Of a stretch of DNA of 64,000 nucleotides, positions 34,841 through 43,728 are shown piece after piece. The stretch covers positions 32,001 to 96,000 of the forward strand of contig JBHLNS010000003.1 in the NCBI GenBank assembly GCA_048941285.1, written 5' to 3'. Below the pieces are notes generated by a model. It did not search any database. It was not told the origin of the DNA and worked only from the letters and a program-made list of their open reading frames with translations. The position numbers were made by a program, and so were the translations under genes. Numbering within the stretch: position 1 is the stretch's first letter; each line of letters begins with the position of its first letter. Source of the DNA: Promethearchaeota archaeon (GTDB lineage Archaea > Asgardarchaeota > Lokiarchaeia > Sigyniarchaeales > SOKP01).

Positions 34841-35797
34841 ATGAACGAATCAAGAGATTATAAAAAAATACTATTTTGTGGTTTAGAAAATGGTGGAAAA
34901 ACATCAATTTTATTAATATTAGATAAAAAATTTAGTTTACTAACTACTGTTAAACCGACTATAAAAGCAAGAAGAACTATCCACACAAACTCATTATTAG
35001 GCACCACTATTGTCCGGTGGGATTTAGGTGGTCAAAAAGTTTATAGAAAAATATATTTAGGGGATAAGAGTAGGTATTTCACAGAAATGCAATCAATTTT
35101 TTACGTTATTGATATCCAAGCACCTAAAAAATTTGAAGAAGCTATAAATTTTCTTAAAGATATAGTAAACATCACCTCAGATTCGCGCCCCGATAATTTT
35201 CAACTTTTAATTTTACTTCATAAATATGATCCAGACATTAAAAACAATAGTAATATTATAACTAACGTAAAATTTTTAGAAAATGAGATTTCATCAATTA
35301 TTAAAAACATTAAATATTCTATATTGAAAACCTCGATATATGATGAACCAAGTCTGTTAAAGGCTTTTTCTGATGGTGTTTTTTATGCCACTCACAAATC
35401 TGAAATGTTCCAAACTTTATTAAAAGATTACATGGGCAAAACTTATAATAGCTCTACGCTATTATTGGATCAGAATTGTTTTATTATTGCTAGTAGAAGT
35501 ACAAATCAAGCTTATCAAGAAATATGTGAGTCTATAGCGCCAAGGTTAACTCAAGCATTAGAAAAACTAGAAGAATGGGATATAAATACAATAGATATTG
35601 TAACAAACATAGAATTTCCAGAAAAACATTCAGAATTTCAAAAAGAAGGCATTATTTTTCTTAGAAAATTAGATATTGGAGAAACTCGACTATACTTGGT
35701 CGCACTTTGCTTAAATAAGAAGGTCAAAATTAAATCCTATGAATATTTGCCATTATTAGCAGAAAATTTAAAAAATCTTTTAGAGAGTTTTGGTTAA
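34841..35797 (+). CDS. Rag/Gtr-like small GTPase with C-terminal roadblock/longin-like domain
   Basis: G1 GLENGGKTS, G2 PT, G3 WDLGGQ, G4 HKYD, G5 TSIYD, then a C-terminal domain of about 130 aa (STLLLDQNCFIIAS). Confidence 0.82.
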   Translation: MNESRDYKKILFCGLENGGKTSILLILDKKFSLLTTVKPTIKARRTIHTNSLLGTTIVRWDLGGQKVYRKIYLGDKSRYFTEMQSIFYVIDIQAPKKFEEAINFLKDIVNITSDSRPDNFQLLILLHKYDPDIKNNSNIITNVKFLENEISSIIKNIKYSILKTSIYDEPSLLKAFSDGVFYATHKSEMFQTLLKDYMGKTYNSSTLLLDQNCFIIASRSTNQAYQEICESIAPRLTQALEKLEEWDINTIDIVTNIEFPEKHSEFQKEGIIFLRKLDIGETRLYLVALCLNKKVKIKSYEYLPLLAENLKNLLESFG

Positions 35798-36014
35798 TTT
35801 TAGATTTTAATTTTAAGTTAAGTTTTTAAAATCTGATTTTCATCTTAGAGCAACTAATTATGTCAGATTTATTGTAACTTCTTAAAATTATGAAAAACAT
35901 CAATTTTGAAACAGAAATCTAAAAATATAATTTTTAATTTTACTTCCAATCACCCCTCTGTGGGAGGGGTTTAAATATATATTTTTAAAGTTATTATAAA
36001 AAAAGGCAAAAAAT

Positions 36015-37208
36015 ATGATTATAAAGTCCAATGTAAACAAAAATTATATAGGCCCTAAAGCACTCTTTGACCCAAATTATGTACCACCTCGCTTATTGTA
36101 CAGAAAAAAAGAGGAGAACTCCTTACATTCAATTTTAAATGATTCAATTTCTGACCAATTTTCACTTAACATTCTTTATCACGGAATGAATGGGATAGGT
36201 AAAAAAGTAATAGTGAACAAAGTTATAAACGATCTTTTAATAGAAAAAGGAGATTGTTTAAAAATCAATAAAATTAGTGTAGATTGTAAAGAAAAAGAAA
36301 TTGATGACTTACTTTTATCATTATTAAATGAATTAACAAACTGTTCTGATGTTAATTTCAATTATCAAACTATTTTAAATTCAAGTCTTTCACATTTATG
36401 GAATACCTTTAAGTTCATTTGTAATAAACTTGATTCTCATCTATTTTTTATATTTAATAATGTTGAATATTTAGATCCTGAAATATTTCAAAAATTCTTA
36501 CTTTTCAGTAAAGAAACAAATATTACTTTAATTTCTACAATAAATAAATTTTTAAAACCAGGTTATATGGACTTACTTTCTGAATTTGATTTTAAGCATA
36601 AATTAAACTTCTTCTCATACCACGAGCTTTATTCTATTCTTAAACAACGAGTTCTTTTAAGTTTTTCAAATGAAATTGATAAAGACTTAATTAGATATAT
36701 AACAGATTTAATATGCGAAGAATATGCCCCTGTTCCAGGAAAAGGCATTGAAATTCTTCGAGATATATATCCAATTATAAAAAATAATAAAGAATACCGG
36801 AATTTTGAATTATTAGAAATTTGTCAAAATGAGTTTGACTCATTTCAAATCTCTGATGAATTTAGCTTAATAAATTATCTTTCGGAAGAGGATATGCTTA
36901 CTGTGATATTCTTAGATAATCTTTCTAATCATTTTATGCATAAGATGAATTATTATATTTCATTTAATAAATTAAGGGAATCCTATGAACTTTCATGCGA
37001 AACATTAGAATATAAAAAAGATATTAATGAGTTTTACTGCCTAATTGAAGAGTTGTTAAATATGGGTATTATTAAACCCTCAAAAAGAACAAAATCCAAA
37101 AATAATGTTAATAACGGTTTTAATAATAGAAATTGTGATTTTTTCTTTACAATAATAAACCCAAAACAGATAAAGGTTATAATTGATACAATTTTTAACC
37201 AATATTAA
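36015..37208 (+). CDS. Orc1/Cdc6-family protein with degenerate ATPase motifs
   Basis: FDPNYVPPRLLYR..E N-terminus, GMNGIGKK Walker A, FIFNNVE Walker B, ELYSILKQR and a C-terminal wHTH. Confidence 0.78.
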   Translation: MIIKSNVNKNYIGPKALFDPNYVPPRLLYRKKEENSLHSILNDSISDQFSLNILYHGMNGIGKKVIVNKVINDLLIEKGDCLKINKISVDCKEKEIDDLLLSLLNELTNCSDVNFNYQTILNSSLSHLWNTFKFICNKLDSHLFFIFNNVEYLDPEIFQKFLLFSKETNITLISTINKFLKPGYMDLLSEFDFKHKLNFFSYHELYSILKQRVLLSFSNEIDKDLIRYITDLICEEYAPVPGKGIEILRDIYPIIKNNKEYRNFELLEICQNEFDSFQISDEFSLINYLSEEDMLTVIFLDNLSNHFMHKMNYYISFNKLRESYELSCETLEYKKDINEFYCLIEELLNMGIIKPSKRTKSKNNVNNGFNNRNCDFFFTIINPKQIKVIIDTIFNQY

Positions 37209-37377: not shown

Positions 37378-40300
37378 TTGACTTACATTAAAAAAATTTC
37401 CATGAGTGGTTTTAAGAGTTTTGGAGATAGAACTGTAACAATTCGACTTTCAAGTGGATTTACATGCATCGTCGGCCCAAATGGGGCAGGTAAGTCTAAT
37501 ATTATTGATGCTCTTTGTTTTGCATTAGGCCGGTTAAGCAAAAAAACAATGAGAGCGAAAAGTCTTGAGGACCTGATTTTCGCAGGATCCAGAGGAAAAA
37601 ATCCCTCTCAAAGAGCATCTGTTACGTTATATTTTGATAATTCTGAGAACGTATTTCCAGGAGGCACAAGTGATTTTGAGATTACACGAACGATTAAGAT
37701 AGGAGGCGGTGGTGGTTATAAAATGAATGGAAAAAAGGCTACGCGCCAACAAATTCTTAACGCTTTAGCGGCAGCTAATATTGATCCAGATGGGAGCAAT
37801 CAATTTGTCCTTCAAGGAAAAATTGTAGAATTAACTCATATGAATGCAGAAGAACGTAGAAAATTTATTGAAGAATTAATTGGACTTCAAAAATATGACG
37901 AAATGAAAGATGCTACCTTAAAAGAACTAGAAAAAGCAGAAAGAGATTTAGGACAATTTGAAGCGATCTTTAAGGAAGTTTCTGCTCAGTTAAAAAAAGT
38001 TGAAAAGGAGAAAAATGATGCTTTGGCTTGGAAAGAATTAGATGAGCAAATTAATTTTTTAAATTCTCAATTAATTGCATTAAAAATTTCAATATTACGA
38101 CAAGAAGAAGAAGATCTGGAAAGAAAAATCGAAAATTCTTTAAAAATTATTGAAGAATTGCAAGAAAAGATTAATAGACAGGAAGATGTCTTAAAACAAG
38201 AATCACTTGTTATGGATAATATTCAGAAAACAATTTCAGAGAAAGAAAAAGAGAGAGAGGAGATTGCAGAAAATATCACTCAAATAAAAACTCAGATTTC
38301 ATCAAGTGAGACTACTCTTAATTTAGCGCAAAAATCAATTGAAAAATTAGTAAATGAAATTGAAACTTTAGAAAGTAAACAAATGAAACTTGAGGAAGGT
38401 CAAACCTTTGATTCATTAATTGAAAACGTTTCAAATGAAATCTTAGAATATGAGAATCATATCGAAGAAACTAAGAAAGAAATTGAAAAACGGCAGCAAA
38501 ACCAAGCTGAATTAGAACTTCAAATTAAAAATACTGAGGATGAAAATTCTCTTTTTAAAGCCGATATTTCCAAAATACAACAAAATGTTTCGTCTAATAA
38601 TGCTCAGGTCAAGATGCTCAAAGGAACTATAAAAAAAAATGAAGAAAAGAAACAAAAATTAGAAGTTGAGTTAGAGAAATTGAAAAGGGATGCAGAAAGT
38701 ATTGATGAAGCCATCGAAGCCGCCAAAAAGGAAGAAGCAGATATTAGAACTCGTATTAATGATTTAAATACTAAAATCTCAAAAGAAAACCAAAATCAAA
38801 AAGACTTAGAGAACGATATAAGTAGTCTTCAAGCAGACAAGAATCAATTAAATTCAAAATTAACAGATTTTCAAGCTTCTTTATCCTCTTTAAACACAGA
38901 AATTAAAATGAATCAAGGGACTATCCAAGAACTAAATGAAAAGAAAATTTCTATCAAGAAGAAAATTACTGATTTAAGCAAAGGTAGAGATGCTGAAAAG
39001 GCTGTAAAAGAATTACTAAAAGATAATGAGGGAATTAATAAAGATTTAAGTGAATTAAAAGCGAAATTGAAGCAAGAAAACTCAAACTATAGAAAAAATG
39101 AGCACGATTTAGAATTAATGAATATGAAGAAATATTCATTCGAATCAGAAATCAATGATAACAATGCAAAGATTGATAATATCAATACTGAACTAAAAAT
39201 TCTTTCAAAAGAATTAAAAAAATTGGATCGAGAAAAAAATAATATAGAATTGCAAGTTGACTCTTTAAGTAAAACGCTCTCAACGACAACAAGTGAATCC
39301 GAAAAATCTCAATTAAAAAAAGAAAATATTCAAAGAAGATTACAGGATCTTTCTGAAGAAAGAGAAAATTTAGTTAAGAAAATCGAGATTTCTGAAGAAG
39401 AATATGATAAGAATACAAAAGATATCACAGGAATTCTCCAAATTTTAAATATGCTCACTCAAAATATTAACATTTCGGTAGAGTCGATTAAAAGTAATAT
39501 CCAACAGTCAAATGCAGAAGCTATTGAATCCTCCGCAGAAGATTTCAAAAAATTTATTCTAGATATAATTGATATTATGAAATCAGTTGAGGATATTGGT
39601 ACAGATGAAGAAAAACCCACTGAAATGACCAGTATGCTTAGTTCTATCATGCAAACTCTAAAATTATTTACAGATAATGCCGATGATACAATTAATCAAC
39701 TAATTGAAAGAGTCAAAGAGTCTGCTGACGTTGAAGTTCAATCGTCAACAAATACATTTGATAATTTTGTTCAAGACTTAATGGAAATTCTTGAAAATGT
39801 ATATCTCTCCTTAAGGAAATTGACTATGTCTAAAAGTCAAGAATTATATAAACAATTAGAAGAGATTTCAGCAAGCATTAAATCTCAAACAGATGAATTC
39901 AATAAAAATGAACAACTATTAACTGAAACCAGAATTCAAGAGAAGCATTTTTCTGAAAATCTTTCATCCCATAATAAAAGACTTGAAGAAATTAATAAAA
40001 GAAATACTGAATTAAATCAAAGAATTAAAAAAGCAGAAGACGAAATAAATGAAAGAAGGGATATTATTAATAATCGGCAATTAGAAGTCAATAACTTGGA
40101 TTCCGAGATTAGCAAATTAAAAGAACTTAAGGATACTTTTTGGGATAACATATCTAAAATCCAAGATGATATTGATAGAAAGCAAAAGGACTTAGAAATT
40201 TTAAGAGAAAAGCTTCAAGAATTACATGGTATTCAGAATTTATTTGATAATATCGTAGAAATTGATGCTAATATAGAAAAATTAAATAGTTTTATTGAAG

Positions 40301-41829
40301 AAAAGAAAAACATAATATTAAACACTGAAGAGAGCATTAAAAATATTCAAGTTGATCAAAATTCAATCCAAAATAGCATAAATGAACATCTTATTAAAAA
40401 AGAAAAATTTTGGGGAATAACTGAGAATTTACGAAAACAGATAGATGTTGAAAATAAAAGCCTTGAAGAAACTATGGATCGTCTAAGAGCACTTGAAAAT
40501 GTGATGAGGATAATCACATCTATTGAAGATATTAAAAAAGAGAATATAGATGCAACTAATCGAATTAAAACTTGTCAAGATGATATAGAAAATCTTAATT
40601 CCCAAGTTCAAGAAATTCAAAAAAATGTGGATCAAAAACAGCTGGTTATAAACTCCTTAAGAGATGAAAAATCTCAAGAATTAGAATCCCAAAAAGCAGC
40701 TCAGAAAAAATTAAATAAACTGAATAAAGATTTACAGAGATCTCAAGGTAAACTAAATGAATTAAATAAAAACAAGGAGAGAGAACAAAAGATTCTTGGG
40801 TTGAATCAGGATATAAAAGACACTGAAGAACAAATTGAATCAATAACAAAAGAGTTAGAAGTTTTTAAAGAAGATTTAACTAATGAAAATTTGAAGAAAG
40901 ATGAAAAACAAAAAGAGATTGATAAGTTTGTACAAGAAAAGGATGAATCATGGAAAAAGCAAAAACAATATCAGAAAGTTATAACTGATTTAAAATCTGA
41001 TCTCTCCATGGAAAATTCAAAAATAAACAATTATGAATCTAAAAAGATTATGTGTACTGACCAGATAGAAACCTTATTTCAACGTTCTAAAGAATATGGC
41101 TCATTACCACCTGTAACTGGTGATCTTGTTGAAGCAGAATTGCAATCAGATATCGTAGAATTAACAAAAAAAAAGAAGGCTCTTGAACCAGTGAATTTAA
41201 AAGCAATTCAACAATATGACGCAGTTAAAGAAAGATTTGATGAGATAGATATGAGGCGTCAAACAATTCAAAGAGAAAGAAAGTCGATTCTTGATGCAAT
41301 AGATAAAATTGAATTAGAAAAAACTCGAACTTTTATGAAAGCTTATCATGAGATTAATAGGGAATTCTCAAGGATTTTTCAAAAGTTATCTCCAGGAGGT
41401 TCTGCAAAGATGATTTTAGATAGACCAGACAAACCTTTTGAGGGAGGCATTTCTATCGAAGCAAGACCCAGAGGTAAAAAAATTAGCTCACTAGAAATTT
41501 TAAGTGGTGGCGAAAAAACATTAGTTGCGTTATCTTTCATTTTTGCGGTTCAAGAATTTTATCCTGCTCCATTTTATGTGATGGATGAAATCGACGCTGC
41601 TTTAGATGGCCCAAATGTACACCGTGTTTCAATGGTTATTAAGGAATTTGCTTCACAAGCTCAATTTATGGTGATTAGCCATCGTGAGGAAAATATAGTA
41701 AACGCAGATAGAATTTATGGTGTTTCAATGCAACAAAGTGGAATCACTGATATTTTTAGCGTTGACTTAGAAGAAGAAGCTAAGAGACTCCTTGAACTTG
41801 AAGATATAGAACCAACAATTACAGAATAA
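37378..41829 (+). CDS. smc: SMC chromosome segregation protein, extra-long, without a canonical hinge
   Basis: GFKSF, GPNGAGKSN, Q-loop VLQG, PVNLKAI, LSGGEK, MDEIDAALD and ISH; followed by scpA and scpB. Confidence 0.95.
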   Translation: MTYIKKISMSGFKSFGDRTVTIRLSSGFTCIVGPNGAGKSNIIDALCFALGRLSKKTMRAKSLEDLIFAGSRGKNPSQRASVTLYFDNSENVFPGGTSDFEITRTIKIGGGGGYKMNGKKATRQQILNALAAANIDPDGSNQFVLQGKIVELTHMNAEERRKFIEELIGLQKYDEMKDATLKELEKAERDLGQFEAIFKEVSAQLKKVEKEKNDALAWKELDEQINFLNSQLIALKISILRQEEEDLERKIENSLKIIEELQEKINRQEDVLKQESLVMDNIQKTISEKEKEREEIAENITQIKTQISSSETTLNLAQKSIEKLVNEIETLESKQMKLEEGQTFDSLIENVSNEILEYENHIEETKKEIEKRQQNQAELELQIKNTEDENSLFKADISKIQQNVSSNNAQVKMLKGTIKKNEEKKQKLEVELEKLKRDAESIDEAIEAAKKEEADIRTRINDLNTKISKENQNQKDLENDISSLQADKNQLNSKLTDFQASLSSLNTEIKMNQGTIQELNEKKISIKKKITDLSKGRDAEKAVKELLKDNEGINKDLSELKAKLKQENSNYRKNEHDLELMNMKKYSFESEINDNNAKIDNINTELKILSKELKKLDREKNNIELQVDSLSKTLSTTTSESEKSQLKKENIQRRLQDLSEERENLVKKIEISEEEYDKNTKDITGILQILNMLTQNINISVESIKSNIQQSNAEAIESSAEDFKKFILDIIDIMKSVEDIGTDEEKPTEMTSMLSSIMQTLKLFTDNADDTINQLIERVKESADVEVQSSTNTFDNFVQDLMEILENVYLSLRKLTMSKSQELYKQLEEISASIKSQTDEFNKNEQLLTETRIQEKHFSENLSSHNKRLEEINKRNTELNQRIKKAEDEINERRDIINNRQLEVNNLDSEISKLKELKDTFWDNISKIQDDIDRKQKDLEILREKLQELHGIQNLFDNIVEIDANIEKLNSFIEEKKNIILNTEESIKNIQVDQNSIQNSINEHLIKKEKFWGITENLRKQIDVENKSLEETMDRLRALENVMRIITSIEDIKKENIDATNRIKTCQDDIENLNSQVQEIQKNVDQKQLVINSLRDEKSQELESQKAAQKKLNKLNKDLQRSQGKLNELNKNKEREQKILGLNQDIKDTEEQIESITKELEVFKEDLTNENLKKDEKQKEIDKFVQEKDESWKKQKQYQKVITDLKSDLSMENSKINNYESKKIMCTDQIETLFQRSKEYGSLPPVTGDLVEAELQSDIVELTKKKKALEPVNLKAIQQYDAVKERFDEIDMRRQTIQRERKSILDAIDKIELEKTRTFMKAYHEINREFSRIFQKLSPGGSAKMILDRPDKPFEGGISIEARPRGKKISSLEILSGGEKTLVALSFIFAVQEFYPAPFYVMDEIDAALDGPNVHRVSMVIKEFASQAQFMVISHREENIVNADRIYGVSMQQSGITDIFSVDLEEEAKRLLELEDIEPTITE

Positions 41830-41857: not shown

Positions 41858-42859
41858 ATTTCAGAAAAAGAAATAGATTCTACTAAAGAATATAATTTTA
41901 AAGAATGGACTGTTAAAGATCTCAGAGAATTTGCTTCGAAAAATAATATAAAAATACCTATCAAGTCTAAGAAAATAGAAATAATTGACTTACTCCAAAA
42001 GGTTGTGTCACATCCCGAGTTTATCGATAGATCTCAAGAAGTTAAAGAATTAGAAGAAGAGCTTGTTGCTGGATTTGATGATGAGGAAGATCTTGCATTA
42101 TTGAGAAAAGAAAAACTTGAATTGAAATTCTGGCAAAAGCCACCGTTTTCTAGTTTATTAGACTCGGAAATTGCAAAAGAATCTGAAATTGCTTTTTATG
42201 ATTTAGCAAAATTAGTTGATGAATTTTTTGATCAAATGCTCCACGAAGAATTAATAAATTATAAAATTTCTGGAATTGCGCTTAAAACTTCAGCAACTTT
42301 ACATCATTATAAAATATCTAGCATAATTAGAGAGGAAGAACAAATTCAAAAAAGAGAAGAATTAGAGAAATTCAGACAAGCACACAGTAGGACTATTCCA
42401 AAAGCATTGCCTCAACCAATTCAGCCAAAAATGCAAATAGCTACAAAAGATGAATTGTTTGATGCGATGAGATCTGCTATTATAGAAGTAATGCAGAATA
42501 AAGAAAAATTAAGAAGGAGACGCATGAGAAAAGAAGAACTAAAACAACACAGAATTCAATTGAAATCTAAAGCACAACTCCCTAAAGAACTTTTAAAACA
42601 CATAAGTGGAAGAGAACAAACGATAGAAGAATTGCATGATTCATGGTTTAATCGAATTAAAGCTACTATTAATCTAAATAATAAAGAAACTACTTTTTAT
42701 GAGTTAGCAAATATTATAAAAAGTGAGGAAAAAAGCGATATTGGGCGGAAATTTTCTTTTGTCCGTATGTTTTTAGCATTAATGTTCCTTTCTACAGGGA
42801 ATAAGTTAACTTTATCTCAAGATGAAGATTTTCAAGATTTTAATGTCAATATTAGATAA
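41858..42859 (+). CDS. scpA: Kleisin ScpA with an inferred 49-aa N-terminal extension (ATT start; ORF track starts at GTG 42005)
   Basis: Lies between smc and scpB; has ISGIAL..SA.L..YK and a C-terminal FLALMFL...L.L.Q.EDF winged helix. GGTGA is 6 nt before the in-frame ATT at 41858. Confidence 0.85.
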   Translation: MSEKEIDSTKEYNFKEWTVKDLREFASKNNIKIPIKSKKIEIIDLLQKVVSHPEFIDRSQEVKELEEELVAGFDDEEDLALLRKEKLELKFWQKPPFSSLLDSEIAKESEIAFYDLAKLVDEFFDQMLHEELINYKISGIALKTSATLHHYKISSIIREEEQIQKREELEKFRQAHSRTIPKALPQPIQPKMQIATKDELFDAMRSAIIEVMQNKEKLRRRRMRKEELKQHRIQLKSKAQLPKELLKHISGREQTIEELHDSWFNRIKATINLNNKETTFYELANIIKSEEKSDIGRKFSFVRMFLALMFLSTGNKLTLSQDEDFQDFNVNIR

Positions 42860-42900: not shown

Positions 42901-43728
42901 TTGGAAGAAAATAATGAAAATGATATTAAAGAAAATTCAGAAGAAGACTTAGAAAAATTAGAAGAAATCGACTTAACTGAAGATTTAAGTTTAGAATCAG
43001 AAAATCTATTGACAGAAGATTTTGAGGAAGATCAAGATATTGGAAATGATTTACAAACCGATCTTGATGATAATTCCTCCGAGACAACTATTCTTGATGA
43101 GGAATCATTAAAGAACCAAGTAAGGATTTTCCATCGAAATTTGATTGAAGCTTCTTTGTATGCTGCTGGAAGTCCATTAACTATTGAAGAAATCTCAACA
43201 AAATTGGAAATTCCTAAGAAAGAAGTGGAAGAATTAGTAAATGAAGTAGCTTTTGATTACTTAGACCGCACTACTGCTCTTGTCATTGCACAAATTGGAG
43301 AAAGATATCAAATGCAAATTAAACCAGAATATACAGAAAAAGTTTCTAAATTTGCTAAAGGAGGAGCAATAGCAGAAAGGTATTTGAGAACTTTAACGAT
43401 TATCGCTTTGAAACAACCAGTCTTAAAATCAATGGTTATTAAATTGAGAGGTACTGGAGCATATGAACATATAAAGTATCTTATAGATAATGGTTTTGTA
43501 AATGCTGTAAAAAAAGGAAGATCCCATGAATTAACTACCACCGATAAGTACGCAGATATGTTTGGGCTACCAAAAGATAAAACTGAATTGAAACGTGCTA
43601 TGGTCACACAATTAGGAATTGAAGAAATATCAAGTAGTGAAACTCCAGACGATAATGAATTTTCTGATGATTCAGAACCCTTTAGCGAAACTGAATCAAT
43701 AAATGAAGATGAAGAAGGAGAAGAATAA
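42901..43728 (+). CDS. scpB: KITE subunit ScpB with acidic tails
   Basis: IEASLYAAG.PL, LRTL.IIA.KQP, I.LRG, GR....TT..Y..MFGL. Confidence 0.93.
   Translation: MEENNENDIKENSEEDLEKLEEIDLTEDLSLESENLLTEDFEEDQDIGNDLQTDLDDNSSETTILDEESLKNQVRIFHRNLIEASLYAAGSPLTIEEISTKLEIPKKEVEELVNEVAFDYLDRTTALVIAQIGERYQMQIKPEYTEKVSKFAKGGAIAERYLRTLTIIALKQPVLKSMVIKLRGTGAYEHIKYLIDNGFVNAVKKGRSHELTTTDKYADMFGLPKDKTELKRAMVTQLGIEEISSSETPDDNEFSDDSEPFSETESINEDEEGEE

Follow-up and report, generated by a model that had tools for sequence, protein, structure and literature searches.

The way in which SMC arms link the use of ATP to the movement of DNA, and the reason why certain arm lengths alone work, are open issues, and the hinge is generally taken as a universal site of dimerisation and DNA binding. 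MukB, a protein of about 1480 aa, has long arms with breaks (an elbow and knuckles), a hinge of its own and MukEF as partners, and RecN- and Rad50-like proteins are long ATP-gated tethers. In Bacillus subtilis Smc, arm function is reported to follow a 91-aa period, with viable windows of 253-267, 330-373 and 407-435 aa, and natural Smc arm lengths to have modes at 341 and 515 and a minor one at 423 (PMC5344682). Long arms are also described as helping to dimerise hinge-less B. subtilis Smc, and the arms of B. subtilis Smc as not tolerating inserted peptides (PMC5526789).

The smc gene, its apex and its partner genes

The window, a 64,000-nucleotide stretch of a Promethearchaeota archaeon contig, carries an smc gene at 37378..41829 (forward strand, as are all features given here) that has a TTG start and encodes 1483 aa; by TIGR and Pfam profile searches the protein is a hinge-less Smc with long arms. 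It scores 608.8 bits against TIGR02168, over the cut-off of 567.35, and 632.2 bits against TIGR02169, under the cut-off of 729.4. The split ABC head is complete: Walker A lies in the N-terminal half of the head (aa 33-40, 37474..37497), a Q-loop is present, and the signature LSGGE (aa 1375-1379, 41500..41514) is followed by Walker B/D-loop and H-switch. Homologues were taken from the best 120 matches per search, lists that are tilted to close relatives. The 107 full-length proteins among the matches listed were chosen by Walker A and the signature, so that Walker A is present in 107/107 by construction; the Q-loop is found in 107/107, the H-switch in 106/107 and a strict Walker B pattern in 90/107. 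A quick tree of heads, restricted to Asgard rows and supported by SH-aLRT alone, puts these heads with condensin-type Smc and not with Smc5/6, with a support of 100 for the long clade; the branches of its two Smc5/6-like rows are very long.

Is this gene simply the ordinary Smc of its order? This reading was rejected because the two co-occur: ordinary and hinge-less Smc are found together in 20 genomes of the order. In the present genome (94% complete) no second condensin-type Smc was found; there is one scpB, and a Smc5/6-like gene with a weak PF06470 hinge is located elsewhere, on contig C24. None of the 53 genomes of this genus has an ordinary Smc with a strong hinge match. Past about aa 270 no homology of the arms to those of ordinary Smc is detectable so that, judged by sequence, the protein is a rebuilt Smc paralogue and not a stretched Smc.

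In place of the hinge, profiles and AlphaFold models indicate an all-helical, acidic apex at about aa 676-818 (39403..39831). The PF06470 hinge gave no match in this Smc nor in 10 of 10 orthologues; it is found in seven of nine other Asgard Smc proteins, the remaining two having degenerate hinge motifs by eye. The apex contains an internal 71-aa repeat (aa 680-740 versus 751-811, with a turn at about aa 739-748), and carries a net charge between -13 and -23 in all 28 sequences examined. Both AlphaFold models of the apex are all-helical, at pLDDT values of about 55-75, but they disagree on its fold, the 261-aa model giving an intramolecular four-helix bundle and the 821-aa model an extended hairpin. 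Fold matches were to generic four-helix bundles alone, the best (Z 15.7, rmsd 2.6, 143 aligned) being a designed protein; Foldseek with the apex model returned nothing at E <=0.001, and the apex profile, searched against PDB sequences, returned coiled-coil noise alone. Complex prediction with two apex copies gave a score of 0.01 against a mark of 0.42, and was counted neither for nor against pairing. A CxxC hook occurs in 0 of the 107 full-length homologues among the matches listed. The apex domain is found too in non-SMC Loki proteins. G179 and G209 have 487-aa frames with weak apex matches, which were discarded since by eye they are a tRNA-synthetase-like helical region.

The smc gene is followed by scpA and then scpB. 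The ScpA kleisin (41858..42859) matches ScpA of PDB 6ivh (E 3e-6); its frame is open from about 41852, and the start is probably ATT at 41858 rather than GTG at 42005. Its N-terminus has a weak HeH/SAP-like motif (Ish1, E 5e-5), and the ScpA of locus L088 matches Ish1 over the cut-off (E 8.5e-7). The ScpB kite (42901..43728) matches PF04079 (E 9e-34) and scores over the cut-off of TIGR00281. An scpA-like gene adjoins the hinge-less smc in 22 of 25 loci examined.

Repeat arrays, arm breaks and the 187-aa step

The earlier note had proposed, from eight coordinates, that both arms are built of tandem repeats. Each of the eight is in the reading frame of the ORF 37378-41829 and coincides with the motif named, the equivalent positions being N315, K412, K510 and K607 on the N-arm (spacing 97, 98 and 97 aa) and W922, W1012, L1102 and W1192 on the C-arm (spacing 90 aa). 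The family profile and a register test delimit an N-arm array of four units with 97/98/97-aa spacing (about aa 240-625, 38095..39252) and a C-arm array of four 90-aa units (about aa 860-1215, 39955..41022), so that the repeats are matched, four and four, on both arm strands. BLASTP of the single Smc sequence against itself finds no internal repeat, and family profiles were therefore needed to see the units; unit-to-unit protein identity is 14-28%, and the best lags in the single sequence are 195 (z 4.3) and 90 (z 3.4). A family profile of 27 sequences gives 97, 98 or 195 as top lag in seven of eight N-arm windows and 90 in six of eight C-arm windows.

Could the repeats be heptad background or an assembly artefact? 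The blank self-BLAST and the low identity of the units would suit such a reading, to which we nevertheless give practically no weight. No repeat lag stood out in any of 10 windows of a control profile made from 11 hinge-bearing Asgard Smc proteins (best score 0.33), in contrast to the lags of the family profile. The true register outscored all eight heptad-shifted registers in six of six unit pairs on the N-arm (true 0.52-1.06; shifted mean 0.22, maximum 0.58) and in six of six on the C-arm (true 0.53-0.79; shifted mean 0.21, maximum 0.50), and similarity between units thus exceeds the heptad background in 12 of 12 pairs. The length is moreover kept in >100 independent assemblies. The register test and the step in orthologue length (below) together refute this reading.

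An AlphaFold model of aa 325-1145 (821 aa) predicts breaks in the N helix at aa 335-343 (38380..38406), 437-441 (38686..38700) and 533-539 (38974..38994), the same sites as the three short breaks that had been noted from the sequence. Discontinuities of the C helix are predicted opposite N-arm breaks, at aa 946-957 and 1041; the breaks at facing N and C sites are non-helical and of low confidence, the strongest being aa 533-539 and 946-957. On this model a module is predicted to be a heptad coiled coil of about 83-90 residues that ends in a knuckle, at which about seven extra N-strand residues would loop out opposite a C-strand helix discontinuity. Set beside the insertion-intolerant arms reported for B. 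subtilis (PMC5526789), the three loops in this arm count against the reading favoured below.

As the earlier note expected, orthologue lengths are not continuous but step by 97 + 90 = 187 aa, in two independent lineages. Both arms were measurable in 156 homologues among the matches listed, 150 of them long/long, six short/short and none mixed. Among the same matches the distance from Walker A to the apex is 546-547 (six sequences) or 643-644 (162), and that from the apex to the signature is 454 (six sequences) or 542-544 (165). The short relatives have exactly three modules on both strands and are not one clade (p-AU 1.8e-9) but two unrelated lineages, one of which is nested among four-module congeners. 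The short form of this nested lineage is a recent loss of 97 aa and the facing 90 aa, and is the single length event with a readable direction. The missing stretches, absent from P0162, L085, L086 and G152, are aa 469-565 of the N-arm (38782..39072) and aa 917-1006 of the C-arm (40126..40395), and both take out one and the same knuckle. Short congeners are full length (P0162, of 1295 aa with 11 members, L085 and L086), and scpA-like ORFs are kept downstream of the short-form smc, with an scpB-like ORF in L085. Length changes in the listed homologues amount to two independent events, both of the same step.

Inter-unit DNA identity is 39-48%, with longest exact runs of 5-8 nt, against 34-40% at shifted lags; neither assembly collapse nor ordinary homologous recombination therefore explains the exact size of the loss. 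Its crossovers sit at 7-8-nt microhomologies at equivalent sites of the units, so that mutation bias alone favours whole units. In several genomes the longest exact DNA matches between neighbouring units are at aa 468-469 and 918-922, at or next to these crossovers. A smaller matched indel of a few heptads would leave the local coil intact, but none was found among the 156 listed sequences. Several apparent length variants were rejected: G145, G150, G151 and G155 stop at contig ends, as do G146 and G148 (from coordinates only), G130 and G229 have N gaps, G164 has frame breaks, and P0123 is chimeric, its C-terminal part being unrelated.

Origin and possible function of the long arm

That the arm was extended in matched whole units stands as regards the repeats, their pairing and the 187-aa step, but not as regards the proposed history, in which duplications stretched an ordinary Smc of about 1190 aa to 1483 aa. 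The distance from Walker A to the signature is about 1342 versus 1055, a gap of about 287 aa that is no multiple of 187; the hinge is gone, with a helical apex instead; and the likeness to ordinary Smc arms that stops at about aa 270 returns only at about aa 1225. The sole event with a readable direction is moreover a one-module loss. The superhelical period may set the unit length, the nearness of 90 to the published 91 aa (PMC5344682) being a coincidence of numbers; where two published accounts state the superhelical pitch it is about 99 aa or about 170 Å, not 90.

We think it probable that the locus encodes a hinge-less Smc paralogue accompanied by scpA and scpB genes of its own, that the arm of this Smc comprises four matched modules (97/98 aa on the outgoing and 90 aa on the returning strand), and that its relatives differ by one whole matched module, likely since the heads and arm tip of a condensin-like motor stay correctly oriented only after such a step, a partial one putting the motor out of alignment. 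A rather unlikely but serious competitor holds that the step merely reflects microhomology-driven expansion and contraction of tandem units, that a knuckle needs both its halves, and that the closeness of 90 aa to the superhelix is chance, no long-range phase being selected. It would account for the position of the longest inter-unit matches at or next to the recent-loss crossovers, for the removal of one knuckle by both missing stretches, and for there being two events alone among the listed homologues. However, unit identity is barely over that at shifted lags, so that many other microhomologies exist, and matched deletions within a module, which need no knuckle pairing, are seen in 0 of the 156 listed sequences.

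Two other readings concern what the arm does. The periodic breaks might be elbows that fold the long arm back as in MukB, the module count setting the folding geometry and the step size rather than helical phase. The predicted low-confidence breaks at facing sites and the MukB-like total length (1467-residue chains) agree with this, but the strongest break is lost in the short congeners, which are still full length with partner genes, and fold searches of the long model gave generic coiled-coil matches, with SMC-family rows at TM <=0.17; we regard elbows as quite improbable. It is also improbable that the protein is not a condensin-like extruder but a long ATP-gated tether that forms tip-to-tip dimers or none, the chromosome being folded by a Smc5/6-like complex or ordinary Smc. 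Kleisin and kite genes are kept in the cluster, as the 22 loci with an adjacent scpA-like gene illustrate, the heads fall with condensin-type Smc, the genus lacks an ordinary Smc with a strong hinge match in all 53 genomes, and the listed homologues have no CxxC hook. These points outweigh, in our view, the absent hinge and acidic tip, the coexistence with ordinary Smc in 20 genomes, the Smc5/6-like gene of this genome and the apex domains of non-SMC Loki proteins, all of which a tether would explain.

In the favoured reading, that of a condensin-like motor with a modular arm, two Smc molecules would pair along their arms and at the tip via the helical bundle, ATP-driven head engagement would open the rod as in B. 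subtilis Smc, and one module would amount to roughly one turn of the superhelix. In view of the acidic tip, contact with DNA may be partly shifted to an N-terminal HeH-like or lysine-rich extension of the kleisin. Since 20 genomes of the order also have an ordinary Smc, the job of the hinge-less protein may differ. More tentatively, it is possible that this is a third Asgard SMC complex, a hinge-less loop-extruding motor whose arm consists of tandem modules of one superhelical turn, whose ring is closed by a domain-swapped four-helix bundle, which grips DNA via the kleisin and has completely taken the place of ordinary Smc in most Loki genera, the three- and four-module forms being a natural arm-length experiment.

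Comparison with described SMC systems

A literature search found no paper on the repeats or apex of this protein, although bioRxiv supplements on SMC evolution may list such proteins. Nature here provides three- and four-module versions without a hinge, including two close relatives one clean matched deletion apart, which makes it possible to test directly both whether the period hypothesis holds and whether a hinge is needed. Matched loss or gain of repeats on both strands would be a route for jumps between allowed arm lengths. For Asgard evolution, the complex would be a third, order-specific one beside the two in the literature at hand.

MukB is alike in size and in its broken long arms, but no specific similarity was found in the fold search (PDB 6h2x was among the rows). 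Rad50/SbcC and the archaeal ASRP (ClsN, Sph) are likewise SMC-superfamily ATPases without an SMC hinge; they use a CxxC zinc hook (PMC9389158), whereas the listed Asgard homologues have none (0/107). The Asgard protein also differs from Rad50/ASRP in having ScpA and ScpB as partners, and the ASRP and Rad50 models score far under their cut-offs (NF045487, 151.7 bits versus 300). The hinge-less SMC of marine Actinomycetes shares SMC-type heads and the lack of both hinge and CxxC hook, but is bacterial and, as presented in the available text, simply lacks the hinge, neither a helical apex nor an arm built of repeats being mentioned; it is reported not to co-occur with ordinary SMC (PMC12153180), whereas in Asgard archaea both coexist.

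The length-tuned arms of Burmann et al. 2017 have steps of about 90-100 aa in common with the Asgard protein, in which the step is a visible sequence module; sequence repeats are unreported there, the main text not using the word 'duplication' (PMC5344682). Its sets were gathered via hinge alignments, so that hinge-less proteins would escape them (PMC5344682). Our rough arm estimates of about 505 aa (long) and 410 aa (short) are near its 515 and 423 modes (PMC5344682) but are uncertain by roughly a third of a period (about 30 aa), and this nearness is therefore no real test. With Smc-ScpAB condensin (B. subtilis, Pyrococcus; TIGR02168/TIGR02169; PF02463 + PF06470) the Asgard protein shares the ABC-ATPase head motifs, the head-proximal coil, the joint region and adjacent kleisin and kite genes, and its heads branch among condensin-type Asgard Smc. 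It differs in having no hinge, in arms of about 505 or 410 aa against about 340 aa, rebuilt from tandem modules with loops, and in its status as a paralogue, found beside ordinary Smc or in its stead.

Repeat modules and length steps in the arms

The smc gene (37378-41829, plus strand) encodes a protein of 1483 aa that both Pfam and NCBIfam call SMC. The eight repeat coordinates listed for its arms in the earlier note are all correct. The signal is faint in a single sequence: the units are only 14-28% identical, and self-BLAST of the 1483-aa protein gave no internal match. A 27-sequence profile makes the repeat clear, with a top lag of 97, 98 or 195 in 7 of 8 windows of the N-arm (the outgoing strand, array ~aa 240 to 625) and of 90 in 6 of 8 windows of the returning C-arm (~aa 860 to 1215). 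The repeats also stand above heptad background: the repeat register exceeded all eight heptad-shifted registers in 6/6 pairs on each arm. No repeat lag of this kind was found in 11 hinge-bearing Asgard Smc proteins. The arm repeats are a real feature.

Inside the units hydrophobic residues recur with a period of 3.49-3.51, and the phase shifts at every junction. An AlphaFold model of aa 325-1145 (mean pLDDT 79.8, pTM 0.32) interrupts the N helix at all three N-arm sites where breaks had been noted, and interrupts the C helix at aa 946-957 and at aa 1041. Sums of facing positions (~1468, 1475, 1483) change by ~7.5 per unit, which fits our inference of a 90-residue paired segment with ~7 looped-out N residues in each unit.

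Walker A to signature spacing is 1337-1346 in 106 of 107 full-length proteins and 1151 in the other. Comparing head and apex coordinates by eye gave three length outliers, two of which were assembly faults. The third is genome G152, from a genus (g5) in the same family as the window's genome; its N-arm is short by 97 aa and its C-arm by 90 aa, and there are no N bases in its contig. At full length this short form is represented by protein P0162 (1295 aa, 11 members) and by loci L085 and L086; it misses stretches equal to aa 469-565 and 917-1006 of the window protein, and the two face each other. Two genomes of family f4 also miss exactly 97 + 90 aligned residues, and there the offsets change at the end of each arm nearest the tip. 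The orthologue step of 187 aa that had been predicted was duly found: among 156 proteins or loci measurable on both arms (apex match >120 profile positions, no X), 150 were long (four modules) on both and 6 short (three) on both, with no mixed or intermediate lengths. This set contains duplicates and close kin, the six short cases being two lineages.

In a quick 24-row tree (LG+G4) built from the first 330 aa, including the first unit common to all, plus the C-terminal head region, the g5 short form is nested among long congeners and a single short clade is rejected (p-AU 1.8e-9). These sequence comparisons indicate that the g5 lineage recently lost one module on both strands. DNA identity of neighbouring units is 39-48%, versus 34-40% at shifted lags, and exact runs between them are 5-8 nt, which excludes assembly collapse. 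Several of these runs lie at crossover sites. The pattern suggests that the deletion was microhomology-mediated and then filtered by selection, though room is left for mutation bias behind the whole-module step.

A helical apex in place of the hinge

The hinge domain PF06470 has no match in the window protein or in 10/10 orthologues; of 9 other Asgard Smc, 7 have it. The protein is hinge-less, a point absent from the earlier note. Its centre (~aa 676-818) is helical and lacks CxxC; a 71-aa repeat lies within it (z 4.0-4.7), and its net charge ranges from -13 to -23 across 28/28 sequences. One AlphaFold model makes this apex an up-down four-helix bundle, with generic structural matches only, and the longer model (aa 325-1145) an extended hairpin. 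Confidence in the apex is low in both, so it may be either a monomeric bundle or a swapped dimer.

The earlier note derived the 1483 aa from an ordinary Smc arm lengthened by duplication. That origin is not supported: likeness to ordinary Asgard Smc ends near aa 270 and returns near aa 1225, which argues that the arm was rebuilt, not stretched. This is why the excess over ~1190 aa is not a multiple of 187.

The apex domain also occurs outside SMC. Non-SMC proteins of family f3 (~920-1290 aa; L052:5688-9044, L056:3981-6746, and genomes G133, G135, G137, G139-G142) carry two tandem copies within coiled coil; domains predicted to be beta-rich come next, then a tail rich in lysine. Two that were tested had no Pfam match. 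Two bundles per chain hint at bundle-bundle packing. In an 878-aa protein (L057:1033-3669), also without a Pfam match, an N-terminus that by eye resembles a small GTPase is fused to two apex-like repeats, and the C-terminal part is beta-rich.

Gene cluster, distribution and paralogy

Two further genes follow smc in the same orientation. The third gene of the cluster is called ScpB by Pfam and NCBIfam. The second is a kleisin: its 22-homologue profile matches archaeal ScpA (PDB 6ivh, E 3e-6), with a weaker match to the winged helices at the C-termini of ScpA and Scc1. The labels that close homologues bear in databases place the window's genome in Promethearchaeota/Lokiarchaeia. The scpA frame is open 5' of the listed GTG and there encodes a HeH/SAP-like motif, weak in the window protein and above the Ish1 cut-off at locus L088. 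The probable start codon is ATT, not ATG, ~49 codons upstream (41858-42004), which adds this motif. By eye, relatives in f3 have lysine-rich tails at this position and those in genus g2 a small Cys/His motif; we infer that these N-terminal extensions bind DNA. Just 5' of smc (34841-37208) lie genes for a Rag/Arf-type small GTPase and a Cdc6/Orc1-like AAA protein (a label given by eye; weak NB-ARC/AAA_22 matches). The AAA-like gene recurs ahead of smc in L085-L087.

Of 161 genomes in the class, 131 have a match to the apex profile, and these all belong to one order: 113/134 in f1 plus the window's genome, 1/1 in f2, 14/14 in f3 (one via a non-SMC protein), 2/4 in f4, and 0/7 in f5-f7. Among 1.84 billion representatives it found only 41 proteins, a few unrelated. 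Of the order's 154 genomes, 26 have a strong hinge match (24 within long frames, 2 in stand-alone ORFs), and 20 of these also have hinge-less Smc. In the window's genus the count is 0/53; many surveyed genomes are incomplete, and single absences prove little.

In a quick head tree of 42 Asgard rows, hinge-less Smc (support 100) and ordinary Loki Smc (96) form separate clades, in each of which f4 branches first. Judged from this tree, the two are old paralogs. By tblastn the window's genome (94% complete) has one scpB and no ordinary Smc. It also has a putative Smc5/6-like cluster (contig C24, 9747-14400, genome G000), a 1155-aa frame followed by small genes that by eye look kleisin-like and kite-like; the label comes from a weak hinge, a divergent head and tree position. 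Ordinary Loki Smc adjoins a divergent scpB in L067, L068, L069, L072, L073, L076, L077 and L050, where the window scpA finds no match. Two genus g7 genomes have stand-alone hinge ORFs (L070:5024-5764, 247 aa, PF06470 E 4e-25; L071:4719-5432, 238 aa, E 4e-28) with no ordinary Smc found at that locus, possibly a remnant kept from a lost paralog. In ordinary Smc of several other Asgard families (L030-L032, L034, L035) hinge motifs are strongly eroded (PF06470 26-43 bits or no match).

A probable modular rod and its relation to known SMC systems

Hinge-less Smc, ScpA and ScpB most likely form a condensin-like motor with a modular rod arm. The complex would be Smc2-ScpA-ScpB2 (stoichiometry by analogy), its rods paired at the tip through the helical bundle and free to change length by whole modules only. 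According to PMC5344682, B. subtilis Smc function varies with arm length with a 91-aa period, near the superhelical estimate of ~99 aa; our arm estimates of ~505 (long) and ~410 aa (short), with borders uncertain by ~30 aa, fall close to the 515 mode and the viable 407-435 window given there. Against this modular-rod reading count the small number of length-change events (only two), the microhomology at crossovers, the disagreement of the apex models, and the loops in an arm of a type reported as insertion-intolerant.

Taken together, PMC8665677, PMC9389158, PMC12153180, PMC5526789, 10.1101/2024.01.07.573240 and PMC5344682 distinguish two types of SMC in archaea and hint that some Asgard have undergone a further duplication; they also describe ASRPs with a zinc hook and, in bacteria, a clade without a hinge. 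The four evolutionary SMC papers searched for 'Loki' do not use it in their main text, and in the mostly open-access literature searched we found no account of this protein. The hinge is a membership feature of Smc-ScpAB that the protein lacks; the protein probably works like Smc-ScpAB nonetheless.
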